Position numbers and translations under genes: made by a program | The notes under the pieces: generated by a model | The model's database searches: none | What the model was told of the DNA's origin: nothing | The model's input: only the letters and a program-made list of their open reading frames with translations | Part shown: positions 5,392 to 15,133 of the stretch, piece by piece | Position numbering within the stretch: position 1 is the first letter of the stretch | Layout: each line of letters begins with the position of its first letter | Assembly (NCBI GenBank): GCA_965248435.1 | Contig: OZ252100.1 | Span: forward strand, 3,360,001 to 3,424,000 | Origin: Candidatus Latescibacterota bacterium | Lineage (GTDB): Bacteria > Latescibacterota > UBA2968 > GCA-2709665 | Length of the DNA stretch: 64,000 nucleotides | Reading direction: 5' to 3'

Positions 5392-5544
5392 GATTCACCT
5401 ACCGCGGACCTGATGGCTTTGAACGATGCGTTTCGCGAGTTTCAGCCGCTGGAAGGCGGCGAGTTCTACAAATAGCGCCTTTACCCTAACCCCAACATTC
5501 GAATGAAAGCCTTTTTTCCGACCGCAGGAGGCAAGGACTTAGAG

Positions 5545-6900
5545 ATGCGAAACTGGCGATCGATTTTCTGCCGCGGCTTCCGAATCGGGGTCTTCGCCAG
5601 CCTGTTTGGGTTCGCCTTGTCCGCACCGTGCTGCGCGGTAGATCTGGTGGGAGTATACCGCTCGGCGCTGAAGCACGACGCCCAGTTAGAGGGCGCCCGG
5701 TACACGAACCTGGCGTCGAGGGAAGGGCTGCGACAGGCGTTCTCCAGATTTCTACCCACGTTGACCCTGGACGCAGAGACAGGCGGCACCCATCAGAATA
5801 TCCGCAGCACTAACAATGACCTGTTCAGCCTGGGCAAATCTTTTTTCATGACGAGCCGCGTGTCCGTGACCCTGAATCAGCCGATTTACCGCCATTCGAC
5901 GCTGGTAGGCGTCTGGCAGGCTCGTGCCGACGTGAAACGGTCTGACCTGGAGTTGATGCAGGCCGAACAGGACCTGATACTGCGCTCTGCGAGGCTCTAC
6001 TTCTCAGCCCTTGCGGCGAGAGACGAGGTGACTTTCGCCGAAGCGGAACAGGCCTCGCTCGAGCGACATTTCGAGCTGGTCCAGGTACAGAAGGCGCGCG
6101 GTCTGGCGTCGATTATGGATCTCTACGAGGCCCGAGCCCGACTGGCTACCGTAGAGGCGCAAGTGATCGAGGCAGAGGACCTGTGGGACGACGCGATCGA
6201 GGCACTCCGGGAGCTGAACAGCCGCTTGGCCCCCGACCTCCGACCCCTGCGGGTCGAACTGCCGCTTGTGACTCCTCAGCCGTCCGATGTCGACGCGTGG
6301 ATCGAGCGCGCGGTCGAGGGAAACCTGAGACTAAAGGCTCAGGAACAGGCCGTGGAATCTGCCATGCAGGAGATCTCGCTCCAGAAGGCTGGGCGGATTC
6401 CGGCGCTGAATCTGCAAGCCAGGGAGAACCGGGAGAAGACGGGGGGCACACTGTTCGGAGGCGGAAGCGATGTGGAAACCGCAAATTTTATCGTCACGAT
6501 AAGCGTCCCGGTGTTCCAGGGGGGCTTTCTGGGCTCCCGCATCAAAGAGGCGAAGTACGCCCACCAAGCCGCGGTGCAGGAGCTGGAGCGGCAGCGGCGC
6601 GCGCTCAAGCGCCAGGTACGCTCGTCCTTTTTCGGTGTGACCCGGGCGATCAGCCGCGTGGCCGCGCTGGAGCAGGCCGTACGGTCTCAGGGGCTTGCCC
6701 TTGAGGCTCGCCAGGAGGGCTTCCGGTCGGGAATCGTATCCATCGTCGCCGTTCTGGACGCAGAGCGGGATCTGTTCGAAACGCGGCGCGACCACGCACG
6801 CGCACGCTACGAGTACATTCTGAACAGCCTTCTGCTGCGGGACACCGTTGGCCAGTTGAGCGAAGCCGACCTCCTGCAGGTCAATCGGTGGCTTCAGTGA
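5545..6900 (+). CDS. TolC-family outer membrane channel
   Basis: Signal peptide then DLVGVYRSALKHDAQL, two OEP repeats, VLDAERDLF...ARYEY motif. ATG 5545 preferred over 5503 because of upstream AGGAGG/AAGGA. Confidence 0.92.
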   Translation: MRNWRSIFCRGFRIGVFASLFGFALSAPCCAVDLVGVYRSALKHDAQLEGARYTNLASREGLRQAFSRFLPTLTLDAETGGTHQNIRSTNNDLFSLGKSFFMTSRVSVTLNQPIYRHSTLVGVWQARADVKRSDLELMQAEQDLILRSARLYFSALAARDEVTFAEAEQASLERHFELVQVQKARGLASIMDLYEARARLATVEAQVIEAEDLWDDAIEALRELNSRLAPDLRPLRVELPLVTPQPSDVDAWIERAVEGNLRLKAQEQAVESAMQEISLQKAGRIPALNLQARENREKTGGTLFGGGSDVETANFIVTISVPVFQGGFLGSRIKEAKYAHQAAVQELERQRRALKRQVRSSFFGVTRAISRVAALEQAVRSQGLALEARQEGFRSGIVSIVAVLDAERDLFETRRDHARARYEYILNSLLLRDTVGQLSEADLLQVNRWLQ

Positions 6901-6913
6901 CGGAGTCAGGAAA

Positions 6914-8902
6914 ATGATCCAGGTTGCCGCGCATCCTCCCACAACGCACGAAGTTCGAGCCGAACGGAGAGACCCGCGCCACGGTCCCCTGGAGAAGCAG
7001 GGTCGGGCGCTCGGCGGGCGGCTGCAGCGCCGCGTACGCTCGTGGCGGATCCTGCCGGAGGGCATCGTGTCGGCGGTCGACGCGCGCGGATTCGAGTATG
7101 CCGAGATGGACACCGAGGCATTACGGGAGGCCGCTCGAGATCTGAGGCTGGTCCTGCGCCGCGACGGCTTCCTGCTTGAGCGTGCGGCTCAGGTATTCGC
7201 CCTGGTTCGCGAGACGGCGGACAGGACGGTGGGATTGCGCCACTTCGACTGCCAGCTGATGGGGGGGTGGGTGCTGCTGAACGGGATGGTCGCGGAGATG
7301 GAGACGGGCGAGGGGAAAACCCTTACGGCGACCCTCCCGGCCGTGACGGCCGCGCTTGCCGGCATCCCCGTTCACGTTGTGACGGTGAACGATTACCTGA
7401 CGGCCCGAGATGCCGAGTGGATGGGCCCCGTCTACGAGACGCTGGGCTTGACGGTTGGGACGGTTGTCCACGGCCAAACACCCGACCAACGGCAGGAGGC
7501 CTACGCGTCCGACATCACCTACGGCACGAACAAAGAACTGGTGTTCGACTACCTTCGAGACCGTCTGGTGCTGCAGCAGAGACCGGAGTCCCTTCGCCTC
7601 CAGGCAGACCGGCTGATGGGAGATATCTCTCGGACTGAACGGCTTGTGCTTCGGGGGCTGCACTACGCGATCGTGGACGAGGCTGACAGTGTGCTGGTCG
7701 ATGAGGCGCGCACGCCGCTGATCATCTCGGGAGGGGCGCAGACAGAGGAGGCCGGCTTCCTGGAAGAGGCGGCCCAGGTCGCCCGCGGGCTGGAGGAGGG
7801 ACGGGACTACCGGCTGGACCTCGAGGAGCGACGCGCAGAACTGACCGAGGCCGGCATGGAGCGCATCCGGGAGCAGACGGAGCGCCTTTCCCCGCTGTGG
7901 GCGGGCACGATACGCAGGGAAGAGACGGTGCGGCAGGCGCTGATGGCGTTTCACCTGTTCAAGCGGGACGTGGACTACCTTGTTCGGGAAGGAAAGGTCG
8001 TGATCGTGGACGAGTTCACAGGCCGTCTGATGCCCGACCGCTCCTGGGAGCGGGGTCTACACCAGCTGATCGAGATCAAGGAAGGGGTAGAAGTGACGCT
8101 CCAACGGGACGTACTGTCGCGGATCAGTTATCAGCGTTTCTTTCGCCGCTACCTGCGGCTGGCGGGAATGACGGGCACGGCTTCAGAGGTAGCTGGTGAG
8201 TTGGGCTCGGTCTATGGGCTGCCTGTAATCCGGATTCCGACCAACCGACCGGTGTGTCGCACGCAACTACCCGATCAGATACACGCCACTTCCGTCGAGA
8301 AGTGGGAAGGGATCGTGGCCAGGGTAGGACAGCTGCACGATGAGGGGCGTCCGTGTTTGATCGGGACCCGGTCTGTGGCGGCGTCTGAACACGTCCACAA
8401 GTTGATGGAAGCGGCCGGGCTGCCACACCAGGTGCTGAACGCCAAGTTCGACAAGGAAGAAGCTGAGATCATCGCCCGTGCCGGGGAACGGGGACGGGTT
8501 ACCGTAGCGACGAACATGGCGGGCCGTGGAACGGACATCAAACTGGGGGCGAAAGTGGCCGAGCTGGGTGGGCTCCACGTGATCCTGACCGAGCGTCACG
8601 AAGCGCGTCGGATCGACCGGCAGCTTCAGGGTCGCAGCGGCCGCCAAGGAGATCCAGGCAGTTCCGAGGCCTTTCTGTCACTCGAGGATCCGCTGGTCGT
8701 GAGCGGAAAGGGAGGACTGCTGAGGTGGATCGCGGAGCGGCTCCTTCCGACTGGAAGCGGCATCTGGAGCTGGTTCGCGCGAGGCGCCGTCCGGCAGGTG
8801 CAGAAGCGGATCGAGCGCCTCCACGCCCGCATGCGCCGGGACCTGCTCAAGCAGGACGAGGTCCTCGGCACGATGTTGTCATTCACAGGTCGTTCGGAGT
8901 AA
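6914..8902 (+). CDS. SecA-like DEAD ATPase (accessory, C-terminally truncated SecA paralogue)
   Basis: AEMETGEGKT, VTVNDYL, DEADSVLVDEARTPLIISG, GMTGTA, ATNMAGRGTDIKL, QLQGRSGRQGDPG; only 662 aa. Confidence 0.92.
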   Translation: MIQVAAHPPTTHEVRAERRDPRHGPLEKQGRALGGRLQRRVRSWRILPEGIVSAVDARGFEYAEMDTEALREAARDLRLVLRRDGFLLERAAQVFALVRETADRTVGLRHFDCQLMGGWVLLNGMVAEMETGEGKTLTATLPAVTAALAGIPVHVVTVNDYLTARDAEWMGPVYETLGLTVGTVVHGQTPDQRQEAYASDITYGTNKELVFDYLRDRLVLQQRPESLRLQADRLMGDISRTERLVLRGLHYAIVDEADSVLVDEARTPLIISGGAQTEEAGFLEEAAQVARGLEEGRDYRLDLEERRAELTEAGMERIREQTERLSPLWAGTIRREETVRQALMAFHLFKRDVDYLVREGKVVIVDEFTGRLMPDRSWERGLHQLIEIKEGVEVTLQRDVLSRISYQRFFRRYLRLAGMTGTASEVAGELGSVYGLPVIRIPTNRPVCRTQLPDQIHATSVEKWEGIVARVGQLHDEGRPCLIGTRSVAASEHVHKLMEAAGLPHQVLNAKFDKEEAEIIARAGERGRVTVATNMAGRGTDIKLGAKVAELGGLHVILTERHEARRIDRQLQGRSGRQGDPGSSEAFLSLEDPLVVSGKGGLLRWIAERLLPTGSGIWSWFARGAVRQVQKRIERLHARMRRDLLKQDEVLGTMLSFTGRSE

Positions 8903-8907
8903 TCACC

Positions 8908-9633
8908 ATGAAACGTTTGGGCTGTATCTTTGCCGTTGGTTTTCTGTCGATGGCCGCGGGACCGGTGGATCCGGGGGTGGGACACGATGGTCTCATCGAA
9001 CCCTACGAAGTGGTTGAGCTGAGCAGTCAGGTCCCCGGCATTCTTGAGGAGGTGACTGTAGAACGGGGTGGAAGTGTGGAGAAGGGTCAGGTTCTTGTGC
9101 GACTCAAATCTGGTCTGGAAAGGGTCGCGGTCGATCGCGCTCGGGCCCAGCTGGAGTTTTCGAAGCGCCGAGCGGAACGGAACAAGGAGCTGTTCCAGAA
9201 GGAGCTCCTCTCTATCCACGAGCAGGACGAGATGGAGACAGAGATTCAGATCGCCAGGCTGCAGCTGAAGGAGGCCGAGGAGCGGCTCGCCTTGCGGACG
9301 ATCCGGAGCCCGATCCGCGGGGTGGTGGTGGACCGAACCGTGTCACCCGGGGAATACGTGGGTGACCGTCCAATGCTGAAGCTCGCCCAGATCGACCCGC
9401 TTAATGTCGAAGTCATTGTTCCCGTGACGCAGTTTGGATCAATTTTGAAGGGTATGACCGCGGAGGTCCTCCCCGAAGCTCCACTAAGCGGCGCCTACAC
9501 GGCTAAGGTGGTGGTCGTTGATCGAGTGATCGATGCAGCAAGCGGCACGTTCGGCGTGCGTTTGGAACTGCCGAACTCATCCTATCTCTTACCCGCAGGC
9601 CTGAAGTGCAAGGTTCGGTTTTTGAGGGATTAG
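8908..9633 (+). CDS. RND/HlyD-type periplasmic adaptor (membrane fusion protein)
   Basis: ATG 5 nt after the SecA-like stop, signal peptide, lipoyl halves (V.RGGSVEKGQVL, IRSPIRGVV), IDAASGTFGVRLELPN. Confidence 0.88.
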   Translation: MKRLGCIFAVGFLSMAAGPVDPGVGHDGLIEPYEVVELSSQVPGILEEVTVERGGSVEKGQVLVRLKSGLERVAVDRARAQLEFSKRRAERNKELFQKELLSIHEQDEMETEIQIARLQLKEAEERLALRTIRSPIRGVVVDRTVSPGEYVGDRPMLKLAQIDPLNVEVIVPVTQFGSILKGMTAEVLPEAPLSGAYTAKVVVVDRVIDAASGTFGVRLELPNSSYLLPAGLKCKVRFLRD

Positions 9634-9712: not shown

Positions 9713-10111
9713 GTGCGGAAGTTTGGAGTGGGCAACAACGAAGAGAAACTCGTTTTCGTCGCGCAAAAGCACGACGCGACGACGCTTCATTACGACTTCC
9801 GGCTGGAAAGGGACGGCGTGTTGAAGAGTTGGGCCGTCCCGAAGGGCGTGCCGACTAAGGAGAGTGTAAAACGGTTGGCCGTGGAAGTGGAGGATCACGA
9901 TGTAGAGTACGGGGACTTCGAAGGGGAAATTGAAGAGGGGGAGTACGGCGCAGGGAAGGTGGAGATCTGGGACAACGGGCGTTATGAAGCGGAGTCGTGG
10001 AAAGAGGACAAGATCATCTTTGCACTCAATGGGAAACGATTCCAGGGACGCTACTGCCTGGTTCGCTTCAAGAGGGCAGGGGAAAAGAACTGGTTGCTGT
10101 TTCGGCTGTGA
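9713..10111 (+). CDS. Stand-alone LigD 3'-phosphoesterase domain protein
   Basis: FVAQKHDATTLHYDFRLE..GVLKSWAVPKG, RLAVEVEDH, YGAGKVEIWD. Exact start uncertain. Confidence 0.9.
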   Translation: MRKFGVGNNEEKLVFVAQKHDATTLHYDFRLERDGVLKSWAVPKGVPTKESVKRLAVEVEDHDVEYGDFEGEIEEGEYGAGKVEIWDNGRYEAESWKEDKIIFALNGKRFQGRYCLVRFKRAGEKNWLLFRL

Positions 10112-10257
10112 CGATCTGACCTTTATAGCTTGACGGCTAAGCGGATGGCTTTCCGTTGCGTTTTGAGAATTTGCATCTTATTTTTGGTTGATAGGTTATC
10201 TGGACACGCTTTTGAAATAGAGTGTGTCCGGTTTTTTGTTGTGTCGCTGGGAGGACG

Positions 10258-11373
10258 ATGATCACGACACACACCGATGTCGTTGGAAGCCTGCTCCGTC
10301 CGGAGCGGCTGCTGAATGCTCGGGAAGACCTCGCGGCTGAGAGAATCACGGAAACGGACTTCAAGAAGGTCGAAGACCGCGCCGTCGATCATGCCGTCGC
10401 GATTCAGGAGGCGGCGGGACTTGGGGTGGTGACGGACGGAGAGATGCGACGTCAGTCGTTCCAGAGTCAGATGACCGAGGCGGTCGATGGATTTGGAGAA
10501 TACTCGCTGGATGCCTTCTTGTGGGGAGACTGGAAGGGGGATGATTCGGTCGGGGATCTGCACCTGGAGCGCCCGACCGCGCTCGGCGTCGAGCGGAAGT
10601 TGAGAAGGCGTCGCCACCTGAGTGTCCATGAATTCAATTACTTACGGGATCACACGACACGGATCCCGAAGGTCACCTTGCCGAGCCCGAGCCTGTGGGC
10701 GAATTTCTGGTCGCCCGAGCGATCTACGGAGGCCTACTCTTCACTTGACGAATTCCTTTCAGATGTTGCCATCATCCTGCGGGACGAGGTGACGGATCTG
10801 GTGCGTCTCGGGGCTCGGTACATCCAGCTGGATGCGCCACATTATACGCAGTTGATCGACCCGAAGACGCGGGCCTTTTATGAGGCACAGGGGTGGGACC
10901 TGGACCGCTGGGTGAGCGCCGGGATTGAGCTTGACAACGCGGTGATGGGTGACTTTCCTGGTATAACGTTCGGGTTTCACCTGTGACGAGGCAATCAGGG
11001 CAGCCGGTGGCTGCTCGACGGCGGGTACGAGCCGATTGCGGCCAGGATCTTCCAAGGGGTTCGCGCCCAGCGACTTCTGCTTGAATACGATGATGAGCGA
11101 TCGGGTTCCTTCCAGGCACTGAAGGAGGTCCCCGAGGAGAAGATGGTGGTGCTGGGTCTGGTCTCCTCCAAGACGCCGAGGTTGGAGACGCGAGAGGATC
11201 TTGGCGAACGGATCCGGGAAGCCAGTCAGTTCATCTCCTTGGAACGTCTAGCCCTGAGCACGCAGTGCGGCTTCGCGAGCTCTGTCGTGGGCAATCGAAT
11301 CTCAGAAGAAGACCAGAAGCGGAAGCTGGCGCTCGTCACCGAGACGGCGCGGGATGTCTGGAAAGACGCGTAA
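10258..11373 (+). CDS. Cobalamin-independent methionine synthase II (MetE catalytic-domain) family protein, predicted selenoprotein (UGA 10984-10986)
   Basis: GGAGGA RBS; DVVGSLLRP, VTDGEMRR, YIQLDAP, H-L-[TGA]-R-G-N in place of HxCRGN, LLEYD, LSTQCGFASS. ORFs 10222..10986 and 11143..11373 share a frame with no other stop between them. Confidence 0.88.
10998..11016 (+). promoter_or_regulatory. SECIS-like hairpin
   Basis: GGGCAGCC-GGT-GGCTGCTC, 8-bp stem (one G-U) starting 11 nt after the TGA, loop begins with G. Confidence 0.75.
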
Positions 11374-11410
11374 GACATTCGTCATTTGAACCAATCTTTA
11401 GGAGGAGACC

Positions 11411-12376
11411 ATGCTTGTGGGATTGAGGGTTTCGGGTTTTGTGTTCGCCACAATTATGATGGCCTCGTTTGCCCACGCCCAGAAGGAACGACACTTCGCC
11501 TTTACCTATAATGTAGAGATCACTGATCTACCGGAGTCCGCAAAGAAAGTGGAAGTATGGCTGCCGGTCCCGCCGGAGACACCGGAGCAGAAGATCAAAT
11601 CAGTCACTTTTGATTCACCTGTTGTCGGGAAGACGCATACCGAGGCGAGTTACGGGAATCGGATCTGGCACGCGCGAACGACTCCGCCGGTGAATGGCAC
11701 GTTGAGCATCACCCAACGCATCGACGTCGTTCGAAAAGAACAGAGTTTAGACCGGGATAGAAAACTGGCAGGCACAAACGGGTCTATGAATGAGTTTCTC
11801 AAAGAGAATCGCATGGTACCGCTGACTCCACGATTTCGTAAAATTGCTCTGGAGGAGACGAAGGATTCAGAGGCAGTCGTGGATCAGGCTCGCGCGCTGT
11901 ATGATTATGTGATGGGTCAGATGGCCTACGACAAGTCGGGCAAGGGATGGGGACGTGGGGACGCGAACTACGCCTGCGATATCCGAAAGGGCAACTGTAC
12001 GGACTATCACAGTCTGTTTATTGCACTGGAACGTTCGCTGGAGACGCCCGCCAGGTTCTGGATCGGGTTTCCTCTGCCGGAGGAAAGGGGGAAAGGGACG
12101 GTCGGCGGCTATCACTGCTGGGCTGAGTTCTGGGTACCGGACGCTGGCTGGATGCCTGTCGACATTTCAGAGGCGGACAAGCATCCAGAAAAAACGGAAT
12201 ACTTCTTCGGCAATGTGGACGAGAACCGGATTGTCTTCTCCGTCGGCCGAGACCTGACCCTGGAACCTGCGCAGCAGGGGGAGCCGATCAACTTCTTTGT
12301 TTACCCGTATGTCGAAGTGGACGGAAAGCCCTGGGCGCGTGTCGACACGCGCTTTTCCTATCAGGATCTGGATTAG
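11411..12376 (+). CDS. Exported transglutaminase-like domain protein
   Basis: AGGAGGAG RBS, signal peptide ending AHA, catalytic triad motifs GNCTDYH, HCWAEF, WMPVD. Confidence 0.88.
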   Translation: MLVGLRVSGFVFATIMMASFAHAQKERHFAFTYNVEITDLPESAKKVEVWLPVPPETPEQKIKSVTFDSPVVGKTHTEASYGNRIWHARTTPPVNGTLSITQRIDVVRKEQSLDRDRKLAGTNGSMNEFLKENRMVPLTPRFRKIALEETKDSEAVVDQARALYDYVMGQMAYDKSGKGWGRGDANYACDIRKGNCTDYHSLFIALERSLETPARFWIGFPLPEERGKGTVGGYHCWAEFWVPDAGWMPVDISEADKHPEKTEYFFGNVDENRIVFSVGRDLTLEPAQQGEPINFFVYPYVEVDGKPWARVDTRFSYQDLD

Positions 12377-12394
12377 GCAAGAACTGCCAGGAGG

Positions 12395-13690
12395 ATGGCC
12401 GTGGAATCCGCCAAAACACTCGCCGAGTGGGTGAGCGACGCAAGACAGCGGACGATGGATCTGGTGGCCGACCTGACCGACGACCAGCTGATGGGGCCGA
12501 GCCTGGACACCGTCAATCCGCTGCGATGGGAGATCGGGCATATGGCCTGGTTCCAGGAGAAGTGGGTACTGCGGCACGTGGGGAAACAGGCGCCCTACCG
12601 GAAGAACGTGGACGCGCTTTATGATTCGATCGCGATCCCTCACGATGACCGCTGGGACCTGCCGCTCCCGAGCCGGGAAGAAACACTGACCTACATCCGT
12701 GAGGTCCGGGACCAGGTGCTGGAACGGGTTGAGCAGGGTCTGAGTGATAAGGAAGCCTACCACATCCTCTACTCCGTGTTTCACGAAGATATGCACACCG
12801 AGGCGTTTACGTATACCCGGCAAACGCTTGGCTACCCGCCTCCTGAACTGGCTGGTGTGGCTCCAGGCCCATCGGGAGGGGGGCGGCTGGATGGAGATGT
12901 GGAGATTCCTGGAGGAGAGTTTATGCTGGGTGCCGGCCAGGACGAACCGTTCGTGTTCGACAACGAAAAGTGGGCCCATCCGGTTACGCTGAAGCCTTTC
13001 TCGATTGCCCGGGCGCCGGTTACGCAGGCAGAATTCGCTGCGTTCGTCGAGGACAGGGGGTATGACCGGAAGGAGTTGTGGAGAGAGGGAGGTTGGGAGT
13101 GGCGGGAAACGGAAAGGGCGGACCATCCGGTCTACTGGCGAAAGGAGTCAGGCGGCGAGTGGCAGCGCCGTGATTTTGACCGTTGGGTTCCGCTCGAATC
13201 GGATCGACCCGTGATCCACGTCAACTGGTTCGAGGCGGAGGCATATTGCGCGTGGGCAGGTCGACGCCTGCCGACGGAGGCGGAGTGGGAGGCCGCGGCA
13301 GCGTGTGGGCACGACGGAGGAAGCCTATCCAAAAGTAAGCGCCGGTTTCCCTGGGGGGATGAGGGTCCCGAATCGGGGAAGGCCCATCTGGACTGGCGCG
13401 ACATGGGCTGTGCGGAGGTTGGGGCCTATCCAGAAGCGGAAAGTACTTTTGGCTGTCGACAGATGATCGGCAACGTTTGGGAGTGGACGAGCAGTGTATT
13501 TCTGCCTTATCCAGGATTCATTGCGGACCCATACGAGGAGTACTCTGAGCCGTGGTTCGAGACCCGCAAGGTCCTGCGCGGCGGCTCCTGGGCCACACGA
13601 TCCCGCATGCTGCGCAACACCTGGCGAAACTATTTTACGCCGGATAGACGGGATGTGATGGCTGGACTCCGAACGGTCGCAAAGTCGTGA
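12395..13690 (+). CDS. senA: Selenoneine synthase SenA (EgtB-related; DinB_2 + FGE-sulfatase domains)
   Basis: NPLRWEIGHMAWFQE signature, LYDS...HDDRWDLPLP, iron motif HEDMHTE, RLPTEAEWE, GNVWEW, VLRGGSW; stop overlaps the senB start. Confidence 0.88.
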   Translation: MAVESAKTLAEWVSDARQRTMDLVADLTDDQLMGPSLDTVNPLRWEIGHMAWFQEKWVLRHVGKQAPYRKNVDALYDSIAIPHDDRWDLPLPSREETLTYIREVRDQVLERVEQGLSDKEAYHILYSVFHEDMHTEAFTYTRQTLGYPPPELAGVAPGPSGGGRLDGDVEIPGGEFMLGAGQDEPFVFDNEKWAHPVTLKPFSIARAPVTQAEFAAFVEDRGYDRKELWREGGWEWRETERADHPVYWRKESGGEWQRRDFDRWVPLESDRPVIHVNWFEAEAYCAWAGRRLPTEAEWEAAAACGHDGGSLSKSKRRFPWGDEGPESGKAHLDWRDMGCAEVGAYPEAESTFGCRQMIGNVWEWTSSVFLPYPGFIADPYEEYSEPWFETRKVLRGGSWATRSRMLRNTWRNYFTPDRRDVMAGLRTVAKS

Positions 13691-14637
13691 GGATTTCCCT
13701 GATCACACCGGCACCGGCCGGCTCGAGGAAGGGAAATCGGGTGACCGCGCAGCGCTGGTCCAAAATCCTTCGTGGACTGGGGCACCGCGTGGACGTTGCT
13801 CAGGAATATGCGGGGAAGCGGTGCGACCTGATGGTGGCGCTCCACGCGCGGCGCAGCCACGCTTCGATCGCTCGGTTTCAGGAGGATCATCCGGACCTCC
13901 CCGTGGTCGTCGCGTTGACGGGGACGGATCTCTACGGAGATATTCACACGGATTCAGACGCTCAGCGGTCTCTGGACCTGGCATCGCGTCTGGTGATGCT
14001 GCAGCCCGAGGGACTTCGGGAGCTCCCGAAGCGCCACCGGCAGAAGGCGCGCGTCATCTATCAGGCGTTTACGTGACCGCAAGGAGACTTTGCCCCCAGG
14101 AAGGGGGTATTCGAGGTCTGTGTACTGGGTCACCTGAGAGAGGTGAAGGATCCGTTTCGCGCTGCTGAGGCAACCCGCCTGCTACCGGCGGAATCGCGGA
14201 TTGAAGTCCTGCAGGTAGGTGGGGCACTCGATGAAGCGAGTGCGGCGAGGGCGAAAGTGGAGGCGGCTGCCAATTCGAGATACCGGTGGCTGGGGGAGGT
14301 TCCGAGGTGGCGCGCCGTGAGGATCCTGGCTCGCAGCAGGTTGCTCGTAATGAGCTCGATTATGGAAGGGGGCGCGAACGCGGTGTCGGAGGCACTGGCG
14401 TGTCGCGTCCCTGTGCTTTCATCTCGAATCTCAGGCTCCATCGGTCTGCTGGGAAAGGATTATCCAGGCTATTTCAAGGTGGGAGATACGCAGGGGCTGG
14501 CCAGGCTTTTGAGAAAGGTGGAGACGGATTCAGACTTCCACAAAGGGCTTAAGCGTCATTGCCGACGTCTGGTCTCCATTGTGAATCCTGCGGACGAAAG
14601 GAGGAGGTGGAGATCGCTGCTCCAGGAACTGGGATAG
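13687..14637 (+). CDS. senB: Selenosugar synthase SenB (GT-B glycosyltransferase) with in-frame UGA at 14074-14076
   Basis: GNRVTAQRW, VALHARRS, LTGTDLY, VIYQ, GHLREVKDP, SIMEGGANAVSEA. ORFs 13687..14076 and 14143..14637 are the same frame separated only by one TGA. Confidence 0.85.
14085..14119 (+). promoter_or_regulatory. SECIS-like hairpin
   Basis: Upper stem TGCCCCC-AGGAA-GGGGGTA (14091-14109); lower stem AGACTT/AGGTCT with a 4-nt bulge; loop starts 21 nt after the TGA. Confidence 0.55.
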
Positions 14638-14662: not shown

Positions 14663-15133
14663 ATGTCTTTGAAGGAAGAGACATTCACGTTCTGGGATCC
14701 GCTTGAATTGGTCGACGGGGATCTTCGCCTCGTTCTGGTCGAAAAGCGATTCGGAAATCCTGCCAGGGATATTGTGCCTGCATACAAGTTCGAAATGAGG
14801 AAGATCGACACCTGGGAACCGATCGGGAGGGTCGATCTCCGAATCGGCAATACGGAGCATATCGTGATGTATTCGGGACACCTCGGCTACCGGGTGGAGC
14901 CACTCTACCGGGGTGAGAGATTCGCGGCAAGAAGCTGCGTGCTCCTGTTCGACCTGGCGAGGCGCCACCAAATCGATCCACTCTGGATCACCTGCAATCC
15001 TGAGAATGTCGCATCGCGTCGGACGTGCGAGCTTATTGGAGGTCGTCTCATCGAAATTGTGGCGCTACCGGAGAATACGGATATGTACAGTGAAGGCGAG
15101 CGCTTCAAATGTCGCTATCGCGTCGATGTATGA
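14663..15133 (+). CDS. GNAT family acetyltransferase
   Basis: GHLGYRVEPLYRGERFA, ITCNPENVASRRTCE. Confidence 0.85.
   Translation: MSLKEETFTFWDPLELVDGDLRLVLVEKRFGNPARDIVPAYKFEMRKIDTWEPIGRVDLRIGNTEHIVMYSGHLGYRVEPLYRGERFAARSCVLLFDLARRHQIDPLWITCNPENVASRRTCELIGGRLIEIVALPENTDMYSEGERFKCRYRVDV

Follow-up and report, generated by a model that had tools for sequence, protein, structure and literature searches.

MetE of T. maritima binds its zinc through His618, Cys620, Glu642 and Cys704, and its Ser411, Glu462 and Asp577 bind the amino and carboxyl groups of homocysteine (PMC539065; here and below, statements about published work refer to main texts). Core-MetE/MesB of Dehalococcoides is a single barrel with an HXCXnC zinc motif and no folate domain, and it takes its methyl group from methylcobalamin (PMC7005905). 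Single-barrel proteins can therefore be methionine synthases with another methyl donor. For the YxjG/YxjH subfamily of MetE relatives we found no biochemical characterisation in the texts covered; YxjG of B. subtilis appears there only as a target of S-bacillithiolation, a modification that also falls on the zinc cysteine of B. subtilis MetE (PMC4360819). Here we describe a MetE-like gene of this type at 10258-11373, on the forward strand of a 64,000-nucleotide stretch from Candidatus Latescibacterota bacterium (assembly GCA_965248435.1, contig OZ252100.1, positions 3,360,001 to 3,424,000; hereafter the window), in which an in-frame TGA occupies the position of MetE's first zinc-binding cysteine.

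Bacterial selenocysteine (Sec) insertion is directed by a bacterial selenocysteine insertion sequence (bSECIS), modelled as a stem-loop shortly downstream of the UGA with a G in its apical loop. To our knowledge, the roles described so far for Sec are those of a redox nucleophile and of a metal ligand (to Mo, W or Ni), and no natural Zn-Se(Sec) active site has been described. A sequence-only reading of the window had predicted Sec at the zinc-ligand cysteine of the MetE-like enzyme and had linked the gene to the selenoneine genes senAB. From the analysis below, we conclude that the product of 10258-11373 is very likely a true bacterial selenoprotein with 371 residues and a single barrel, belonging to the MetE family (PF01717). 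Judging from the nucleotide signature, Sec is very probably the residue inserted at codon 243.

Results

A TGA codon at the zinc-ligand position

The MetE-like frame runs from ATG 10258 to TAA 11371-11373, 371 codons in all if Sec243 is counted, and a Shine-Dalgarno-like GGGAGGA can be read at 10249-10255, 2 nt upstream of the start. Its single interruption is the TGA at 10984-10986 (codon 243). As the sequence-only reading had described it, CAC CTG TGA CGA GGC AAT at 10978-10995 gives H241-L242-TGA243-R-G-N, and the frame stays open for 128 codons, up to the TAA, with the LLEYD glutamate (Glu276) and the QCGF cysteine (Cys337) among them. In a Pfam profile search, the translation matches PF01717 (Meth_synt_2) over residues 6-341 with 62 bits (cut-off 21). 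The nearest solved structure is 1YPX, an uncharacterised structural-genomics entry of the YxjG type that matches residues 5-369 (E = 1.8e-49) and shares the hiCRGN, LEYD and QCGF motifs. Two aromatic motifs, AFLWGDW and LWANFWSPE, are nearly invariant in the MetE-like clade and do not appear in the aligned 1YPX stretch.

The C-terminal barrel of E. coli MetE (annotated K-12 record) served as reference for an alignment of the protein with 13 orthologues and with three paralogues encoded in the same genome. His241 (codon 10978-10980) falls on the zinc ligand His641, codon 243 on Cys643, Glu276 (in LLLEYDD, codon 11083-11085) on Glu665 and Cys337 (in SxQCGF, codon 11266-11268) on Cys726. The homocysteine-binding residues are retained as well, with Ser11, Glu62 and Asp192 at the positions of Ser433, Glu484 and Asp599, and all of these E. 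coli residues are the counterparts of the T. maritima ones named above. His241, LLEYD and QCGF are invariant across the orthologue alignment. This residue-by-residue correspondence places TGA243 at the first Cys of the HxC zinc motif in an otherwise intact site, in support of the assignment made from the window alone; given insertion, Sec243 is a likely zinc ligand on this alignment.

The TGA recurs in several phyla and the frame beyond it is maintained

We assembled 98 loci, comprising the window, 17 from a scan of one genome per species and 80 from a metagenome scan; 97 of them show the motif. Codon 243 is TGA in 33, TGC in 51 and TGT in 13, with no other codon seen, a 33:64 ratio that is no estimate of frequency, because one of the two scan patterns, the one used on the metagenomes, demanded a Cys codon. 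The TGA is not peculiar to this assembly: the identical codon is present in 32 others, 33 assemblies in all, from several phyla. Orthologues occur in two further genomes of the 41 from the same order, one with TGC and one with TGA. A Cys orthologue in L034 is 75% identical. The metagenome-assembled genomes (MAGs) of the species-level scan are recorded as Latescibacterota, Methylomirabilis, Binatia, Tectomicrobia, Nitrospira, Acidobacteria, Chloroflexia and proteobacterial lineages.

Past the TGA, the frame is intact and free of frameshifts in 32 of the 33 TGA loci (125-133 codons, then a stop), and the 33rd leaves its contig. This part of the gene is under purifying selection, with a median pN of 0.24 against a median pS of 0.75 (near saturation) and a median pN/pS of 0.32 over 496 pairs. 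A maximum-likelihood tree was built from the 90 full-length rows, leaving out seven partial ones. The best tree requires eight Sec/Cys changes, at least three of them on strongly supported branches; Sec and Cys forms have therefore replaced each other repeatedly. A Cys-form locus in a Chloroflexia MAG (L049:6001-7099) is covered by three tblastn pieces in different frames, as in a frameshifted pseudogene or an assembly error.

These results bear on the simplest alternative, in which the TGA is a true stop (of a pseudogene or a split gene, or through a sequencing error) or is read through by a standard tRNA, and no Sec is made. Gene callers do stop here, the program-made list of open reading frames closing the frame as 10222-10986. 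The best 120 protein-database matches are all full-length and presumably Cys forms. Opposed to a true stop or ordinary read-through are the identical TGA across phyla and the intact frame downstream, with pN well under pS. Moreover, the first start past the TGA is ATG 11143, from which a polypeptide would be made without Glu276. The synonymous-site selection on a hairpin in TGA forms only, and the Sec machinery encoded in the genome, both described below, argue in the same direction, and we regard this alternative as highly improbable. Reassignment of TGA throughout the genome was rejected: TGA is the terminal stop of 12 of the 32 complete orthologous genes, and ordinary genes of the window are normal under table 11.

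A GGU-loop hairpin follows the TGA

The SECIS-like hairpin at 10998-11016 (+ strand) begins 11 nt after the TGA and pairs 10998-11005 with 11009-11016, eight pairs including one G-U, around a GGU loop at 11006-11008. It is the centroid structure of the fold and agrees in stem length, spacing and G-first loop with the hairpin noticed in the sequence-only reading. The best positive control is internal to the genome, namely the SECIS of its own selD, where the UGA is followed after 13 nt by a 7-bp stem and a C-G-closed GGU triloop. Counted from the U of the UGA, the loop starts at base 24 in selD and at base 23 in the MetE-like gene. A strict motif (TGA plus a C-G-closed GGU triloop, a stem of at least 6 pairs and the loop 19-24 nt downstream) has 12 sites on the two strands of the 5.67-Mb genome. 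Four of the 12 lie inside long open frames, and the MetE-like gene and the Sec-containing selD are two of those four. The other two, at C1:1612619 (+) and C1:1324114 (-), may be chance.

The stem sits within the codons of a conserved peptide, QGSRWL, and its conservation alone is therefore weak proof, being largely coding constraint. To control for this constraint we compared TGA forms with Cys forms encoding the identical peptide, using unique sequences only. In tests that count related sequences as independent, and whose p values must be read with that in mind, the Arg codon CGG, which yields the GGU loop, was found in 26 of 29 TGA forms, compared with 9 of 60 Cys forms (Fisher p = 8e-12), and mean hairpin energy was -11.3 kcal/mol in TGA forms and -5.9 kcal/mol in Cys forms (Mann-Whitney p = 8e-9). 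The commonest Arg codon of the Cys forms is CGC (37 of 60). On average, 7.2 of the eight pairs form in TGA forms and 6.1 in Cys forms. Overall, 89.7% of stem cells are paired, against 20-73% with the partner slid. Pair 17-31 is open in 11 of 29 sequences, and in locus L044 a Gly-to-Ala change re-forms it.

Besides the coding constraint, other results count against the hairpin as a recoding element. An independent-contrast test of Sec versus CGG had only three well-supported pairs and was non-significant (sign test, median p = 0.5), and for that reason we do not offer the Fisher result as proof of independence. Covariation is thin: two of the eight pairs change on both sides, a level matched by 82 of 500 shuffles. 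Shuffled sequences fold as stably as the whole 86-nt stretch 10975-11060 (z = 0.26), and the local hairpin alone stands out. Finally, an Rfam search (E ≤ 10) of 10900-14200, which spans this TGA and a second one in SenB described below, matched no SECIS or riboswitch family, a search that is uninformative for short bacterial SECIS elements. We regard the hairpin as conserved, with significantly better formation in TGA forms than in Cys forms of the same peptide, although formal covariation is weak.

The genome encodes the Sec machinery

The genome, on two contigs, has a completeness of 97.5% and a contamination of 7%. A single tRNA-Sec gene (C1:1062483-1062580) is accompanied by selA (568.6 bits), selB (370.8 bits) and a selD that contains one TGA (371.7 bits); each scores over its curated cut-off. 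The four genes form a single cluster, C1:1062483-1067069, outside the window, and lend support to the Sec prediction. Among the MAGs, selA is found in eight of the nine with the Sec form of the MetE-like gene and in four of the eight with the Cys form.

The gene recurs beside SenA and EgtD

In the window, the MetE-like gene heads an apparent operon on the + strand. A transglutaminase-core protein follows 37 nt past its stop (11411-12376; PF01841, E = 2.8e-25), with an N-terminus that by eye looks hydrophobic and signal-like. Next come the selenoneine synthase SenA (12395-13690; NF041186, 519.6 bits, cut-off 420), the selenosugar synthase SenB (13687-14637) and, as the last gene, a GNAT-type acetyltransferase (14663-15133; PF13302, 28.5 bits, cut-off 25.4). 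Successive gaps are 37, 18, -4 and 25 nt. The transglutaminase-like and GNAT genes have no counterpart beside the other 96 orthologous loci. senC is absent from the window, and the only selD over the cut-off is 2.3 Mb away, with selAB.

We compared flanking frames all against all, first across 18 loci and later across 97, and found no neighbour common to every locus. The most specific recurrent one is SenA, which adjoins the MetE-like gene in eight of the 97 loci (six Sec forms and two Cys forms), a lower bound because many contigs are short. EgtD (four loci) and a TauE/SafE-family protein (six Sec forms) come next; other recurrent neighbours (ADH, CBS/ACT, an epimerase, a sensor kinase) are unrelated. 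In four loci the order is EgtD, MetE-like gene, SenA, a fusion of a betaine-type (OpuAC-type) binding protein with its permease, and an ABC ATPase, and the EgtD of these loci scores 381.7 bits against TIGR03438 (cut-off 290.9). The TauE/SafE-family protein, a sulfite-exporter-like membrane protein, is encoded directly downstream on the opposite strand (L042, L101, L107, L120, L121 and L131) and may transport a sulfur or selenium anion.

We also counted these genes across whole genomes. Of 17 MAGs with an orthologue, 10 have SenA over the cut-off and two more have it as contig-end fragments; all nine Sec-form MAGs are among these 12, two of them only through such fragments. EgtD is present in 14 of the 17 (12 over the cut-off, two slightly under), in seven of the 41 relatives and in none of 14 control genomes. 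Six of the 41 relatives have SenB and three have the MetE-like orthologue, all three together with both EgtD and SenB. We conclude that the association with hercynine and selenoneine genes is real, and that the MetE-like gene is not a fixed member of the sen cluster. The link to senAB stressed in the sequence-only reading is thus real but partial: it recurs and co-occurrence across genomes is high, but it is not universal.

A genuine selenoprotein with such neighbours might also act on the products or intermediates of the pathway. It would then S- or Se-methylate or alkylate ergothioneine, selenoneine or the selenol of a selenosugar, or use a betaine (hercynine) as methyl donor, and would regenerate no methionine. 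The position between EgtD and SenA in four loci, with the OpuAC-type betaine transporter next, fits such a role, as does the presence of SenA in every Sec-form MAG, and the aromatic motifs AFLWGDW and LWANFWSPE could cage a trimethylammonium group. Some MetE relatives do alkylate other thiols, epoxyalkane:CoM transferase being an example, and at least three further full-length MetE-like paralogues are already present in this genome. Set against these points, the protein keeps the Ser/Glu/Asp triad that binds homocysteine, while ergothioneine and selenoneine have no free amine. In addition, no SenA is found in five of the eight Cys-form MAGs, and selenoneine synthesis has been reconstituted with SenA, SenB, SenC and EgtD alone (bioRxiv 10.1101/2022.04.13.486033). 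Action on ergothioneine, selenoneine or another thiol or selenol is possible if doubtful, and we consider the alternative as a whole, without methionine regeneration, rather unlikely.

Upstream of the operon, a terminator-like hairpin with a T-run (10200-10241, + strand; a 13-pair stem with six G-C pairs, then TTTTTTGTTG) ends 16 nt ahead of the MetE-like ATG, between this gene and a LigD phosphoesterase (PE)-domain gene. It could be the terminator of the upstream LigD-PE unit or a leader attenuator; an Rfam riboswitch search of the leader (9950-10330, E ≤ 10) gave no match. The LigD 3'-phosphoesterase domain gene itself (9713-10111, 132 residues) stands alone, with no ligase or polymerase domain alongside. 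Farther upstream, three genes at 5503-9633 make up an unusual same-strand group. They encode a TolC-family outer-membrane channel (5503-6900), a SecA-like ATPase that is short at 662 residues (6914-8902) and a periplasmic adaptor of the RND/HlyD type (8725-9633).

A second in-frame TGA in SenB

The SenB of the operon is full length only if a TGA at 14074-14076 (codon 130) is read through; this second TGA had no part in the sequence-only account of the first. Read through, SenB matches TIGR04348 over model positions 1-309 of 310 with 404.8 bits (cut-off 300). The same TGA is present in all six SenB-bearing genomes among the 41 relatives, at 57-70% identity. A hairpin, GCCCCC-AGGAA-GGGGGU, lies 15 nt past it (14092-14108, + strand), and in one relative (L056) the arms read CUCCUC/GAGGAG, so that pairing is kept despite the changed bases. 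Since the relatives share no in-frame start past the TGA, we rejected a split gene as a general account; in the window, the first such start, GTG 14143, comes only after the conserved GHLR motif. In a Tectomicrobia MAG, a SenB (L142, G051:C20:118492-119433) has one in-frame TGA at a position other than that of the Latescibacterota.

Counted from the alignment, the counterpart of the SenB TGA is Ser134 in V. paradoxus SenB and Ala in one more MAG of the Latescibacterota, and six additional SenBs have a variable loop there; none of seven SenBs compared has a Cys form at this position. The site is three residues past Gln131, which binds the sugar (PMC10891094, PMC11237966). The SenB TGA may thus mark another new selenoprotein, or it may act as a selenium gate. 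The NCBIfam selenoprotein models match neither SenB nor the MetE-like protein.

The two TGAs together raise the possibility that the UGAs serve mainly as a gate. The MetE-like protein and SenB would then reach full length only in the presence of Sec-tRNA(Sec), the operon would yield its products only under ample selenium, and the chemistry of Sec would be secondary. A single selenoneine operon does contain two genes with an in-frame TGA followed by a hairpin. The SenB TGA, aligned with Ser, Ala or a variable loop and never with Cys, is unlike a catalytic Sec, and the repeated Sec/Cys interconversion of the MetE-like gene would also suit a gate. The MetE-like TGA, by contrast, replaces an invariant catalytic Cys, the usual site for functional Sec, and no earlier case in which UGA senses selenium in such a way is known to us. 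Furthermore, one relative (G004) combines a Cys form of the MetE-like gene with a TGA form of SenB; the two genes are therefore not gated together. We think it quite improbable that gating is the main function.

Discussion

Our preferred reading is that the MetE-like gene encodes a Sec-containing methyltransferase. The computation shows the family, the homology of the site, the signature of recoding and the associations with other genes; from these we infer selenium insertion, zinc binding, substrate and physiological role. SelB and Sec-tRNA(Sec) would recode UGA243 as selenocysteine, directed by the GGU-loop hairpin 11 nt downstream. His241, Sec243 and Cys337 would bind the catalytic zinc, joined by Glu276 in the resting enzyme; the zinc would activate the thiol or selenol of a homocysteine-type amino acid, and the enzyme would methylate that group. 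Because the residues that bind the amino and carboxyl groups of homocysteine are conserved, a homocysteine-type thiol or selenol is the group most likely to be activated. As for the substrate itself, we tentatively propose (seleno)homocysteine, at a little under an even chance. With the folate-site barrel missing, the methyl donor must differ from that of MetE, as it does in the core-MetE that uses methylcobalamin.

EgtD consumes three S-adenosylmethionines (SAM) per hercynine (bioRxiv 10.1101/2022.04.13.486033), and the role that we prefer for the MetE-like enzyme is to regenerate methionine, and hence SAM, for these three methylations. That a dedicated homocysteine methyltransferase beside EgtD and SenA recycles the methyl cycle is plausible, though not yet a proposal on which we would bet. 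That the gene keeps recurring with EgtD and SenA suggests that it supports hercynine and selenoneine production, and since the reconstituted synthesis of selenoneine needed no MetE-like enzyme, we argue that this role is accessory.

Several further observations weigh against parts of this reading. The protein gives end-to-end matches to PRK06520 (246.2 bits, cut-off 313) and PRK06233 (241 bits, cut-off 576) that fall short of both cut-offs, and we therefore place it in a separate clade. The MetE equivalogs of NCBIfam match residues 6-197 only, at 45-51 bits with cut-offs of 541-930, and the folate-binding N-terminal barrel of MetE is missing from this one-barrel, 371-residue protein. With scores below the cut-offs and no N-terminal barrel, the name 'methionine synthase' is not justified. 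The MetE-like paralogues mentioned above are a further point on this side. No SenA is adjacent in 89 of the 97 loci, and SenA is present in only three of the eight Cys-form MAGs, so that the family is not specific to selenoneine. In one Sec-form MAG (G050), no selA was found.

If the reading is true, a new family joins the selenoproteins, one whose Sec is predicted to bind a catalytic zinc. MetE zinc sites are well understood and are a weak point under oxidative stress, and natural Sec/Cys pairs that differ by one ligand therefore offer a test of what selenium does there, with a bearing on zinc-thiolate alkyl-transfer chemistry and oxidative robustness. A selenolate ligand could, speculatively, alter the reactivity of the site or ease the reversal of its oxidation. 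Its occurrence with EgtD and SenA hints that ergothioneine and selenoneine metabolism includes an accessory step so far overlooked, or that it receives methyl-cycle support. A more far-reaching scheme would make the selenoneine operon selenium-dependent at two enzymes, a Sec-zinc MetE-like methyltransferase and a SenB with Sec in a loop near its sugar site. Both UGAs would form a translational selenium gate, the Sec-zinc site would resist oxidative inactivation, and the substrate would possibly be selenohomocysteine or selenoneine; we hold this combination to be improbable.

The family is large, with 7,998 of 8,000 scored database candidates matching the MetE-like protein at E ≤ 1e-40, and its Cys orthologues are named 'cobalamin-independent methionine synthase II family protein'. 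TGA forms, if called at all, would appear truncated, and annotation pipelines therefore probably lose a widespread enzyme. The SenB TGA raises the same annotation problem for Latescibacterota selenoneine clusters.

The sequence-only reading had referred to mentions of a Sec-containing MetE for some anaerobes. We could not confirm this in the main texts searched, which do not mention one, supplements being outside the scope of the search. The main texts of the BSepDB paper, the GOS paper, a 2016 ISME survey and a 2022 review contain no Sec protein of the MetE family, and the family table of a 2026 review (PMC13188914) has no entry for 'methionine synthase', 'homocysteine', PF01717, 'glycosyltransferase' or SenB. 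Neither a Sec MetE-like protein nor a Sec SenB is mentioned in the main texts of PMC8318568, bioRxiv 2021.02.19.431964, PMC5029168, PMC13188914, PMC13326102, PMC2398784, PMC12013277, PMC9312934, bioRxiv 2022.04.13.486033, PMC10891094, PMC11237966, PMC539065, PMC7005905 or PMC4360819; supplementary tables, Haft & Tolstoy 2025 and Deng et al. could list the family.

Comparison with known systems

The MetE-like protein shares with the C-terminal barrel of MetE from E. coli and T. maritima the PF01717 domain, the HxC...E...C zinc motif and the Ser/Glu/Asp residues, all alignable residue for residue. It differs in having a single barrel, without the one that carries the methyltetrahydrofolate site, in the predicted Sec at the first zinc Cys, in its clade-specific aromatic motifs and in scores far under the cut-offs of the NCBIfam equivalogs. 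The YxjG/YxjH-type 'methionine synthase II' (1YPX, PRK06233/PRK06520) is equal to it in length and architecture; the MetE-like protein falls under both NCBIfam cut-offs, and no Sec form of the YxjG/YxjH type is reported in the literature searched. Core-MetE/MesB, compared by its description only, has Asp as fourth ligand in a model (PMC7005905); it neither contains Sec nor is linked to EgtD or SenA.

Compared with the described sen cluster, senABC and sometimes egtD, the window has SenA and SenB as well, following the MetE-like gene in an apparent operon; the main text of the sen preprint (bioRxiv 10.1101/2022.04.13.486033) has no MetE-like gene and uses 'methionine' only in another context. 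With bacterial selenoproteins that have Cys homologues and a SECIS inside the coding region, such as SelD and FdhA, the gene shares a UGA at the position of the homologues' Cys, a G-loop hairpin about 20 nt downstream and a genome context with selABCD. The signature is thus the ordinary Sec/Cys one, occurring in a family and at a zinc-ligand site for which we found none described in the texts covered. The predicted Sec of the MetE-like protein would be a structural or catalytic ligand of zinc, serving neither as redox nucleophile nor in the binding of Mo, W or Ni.

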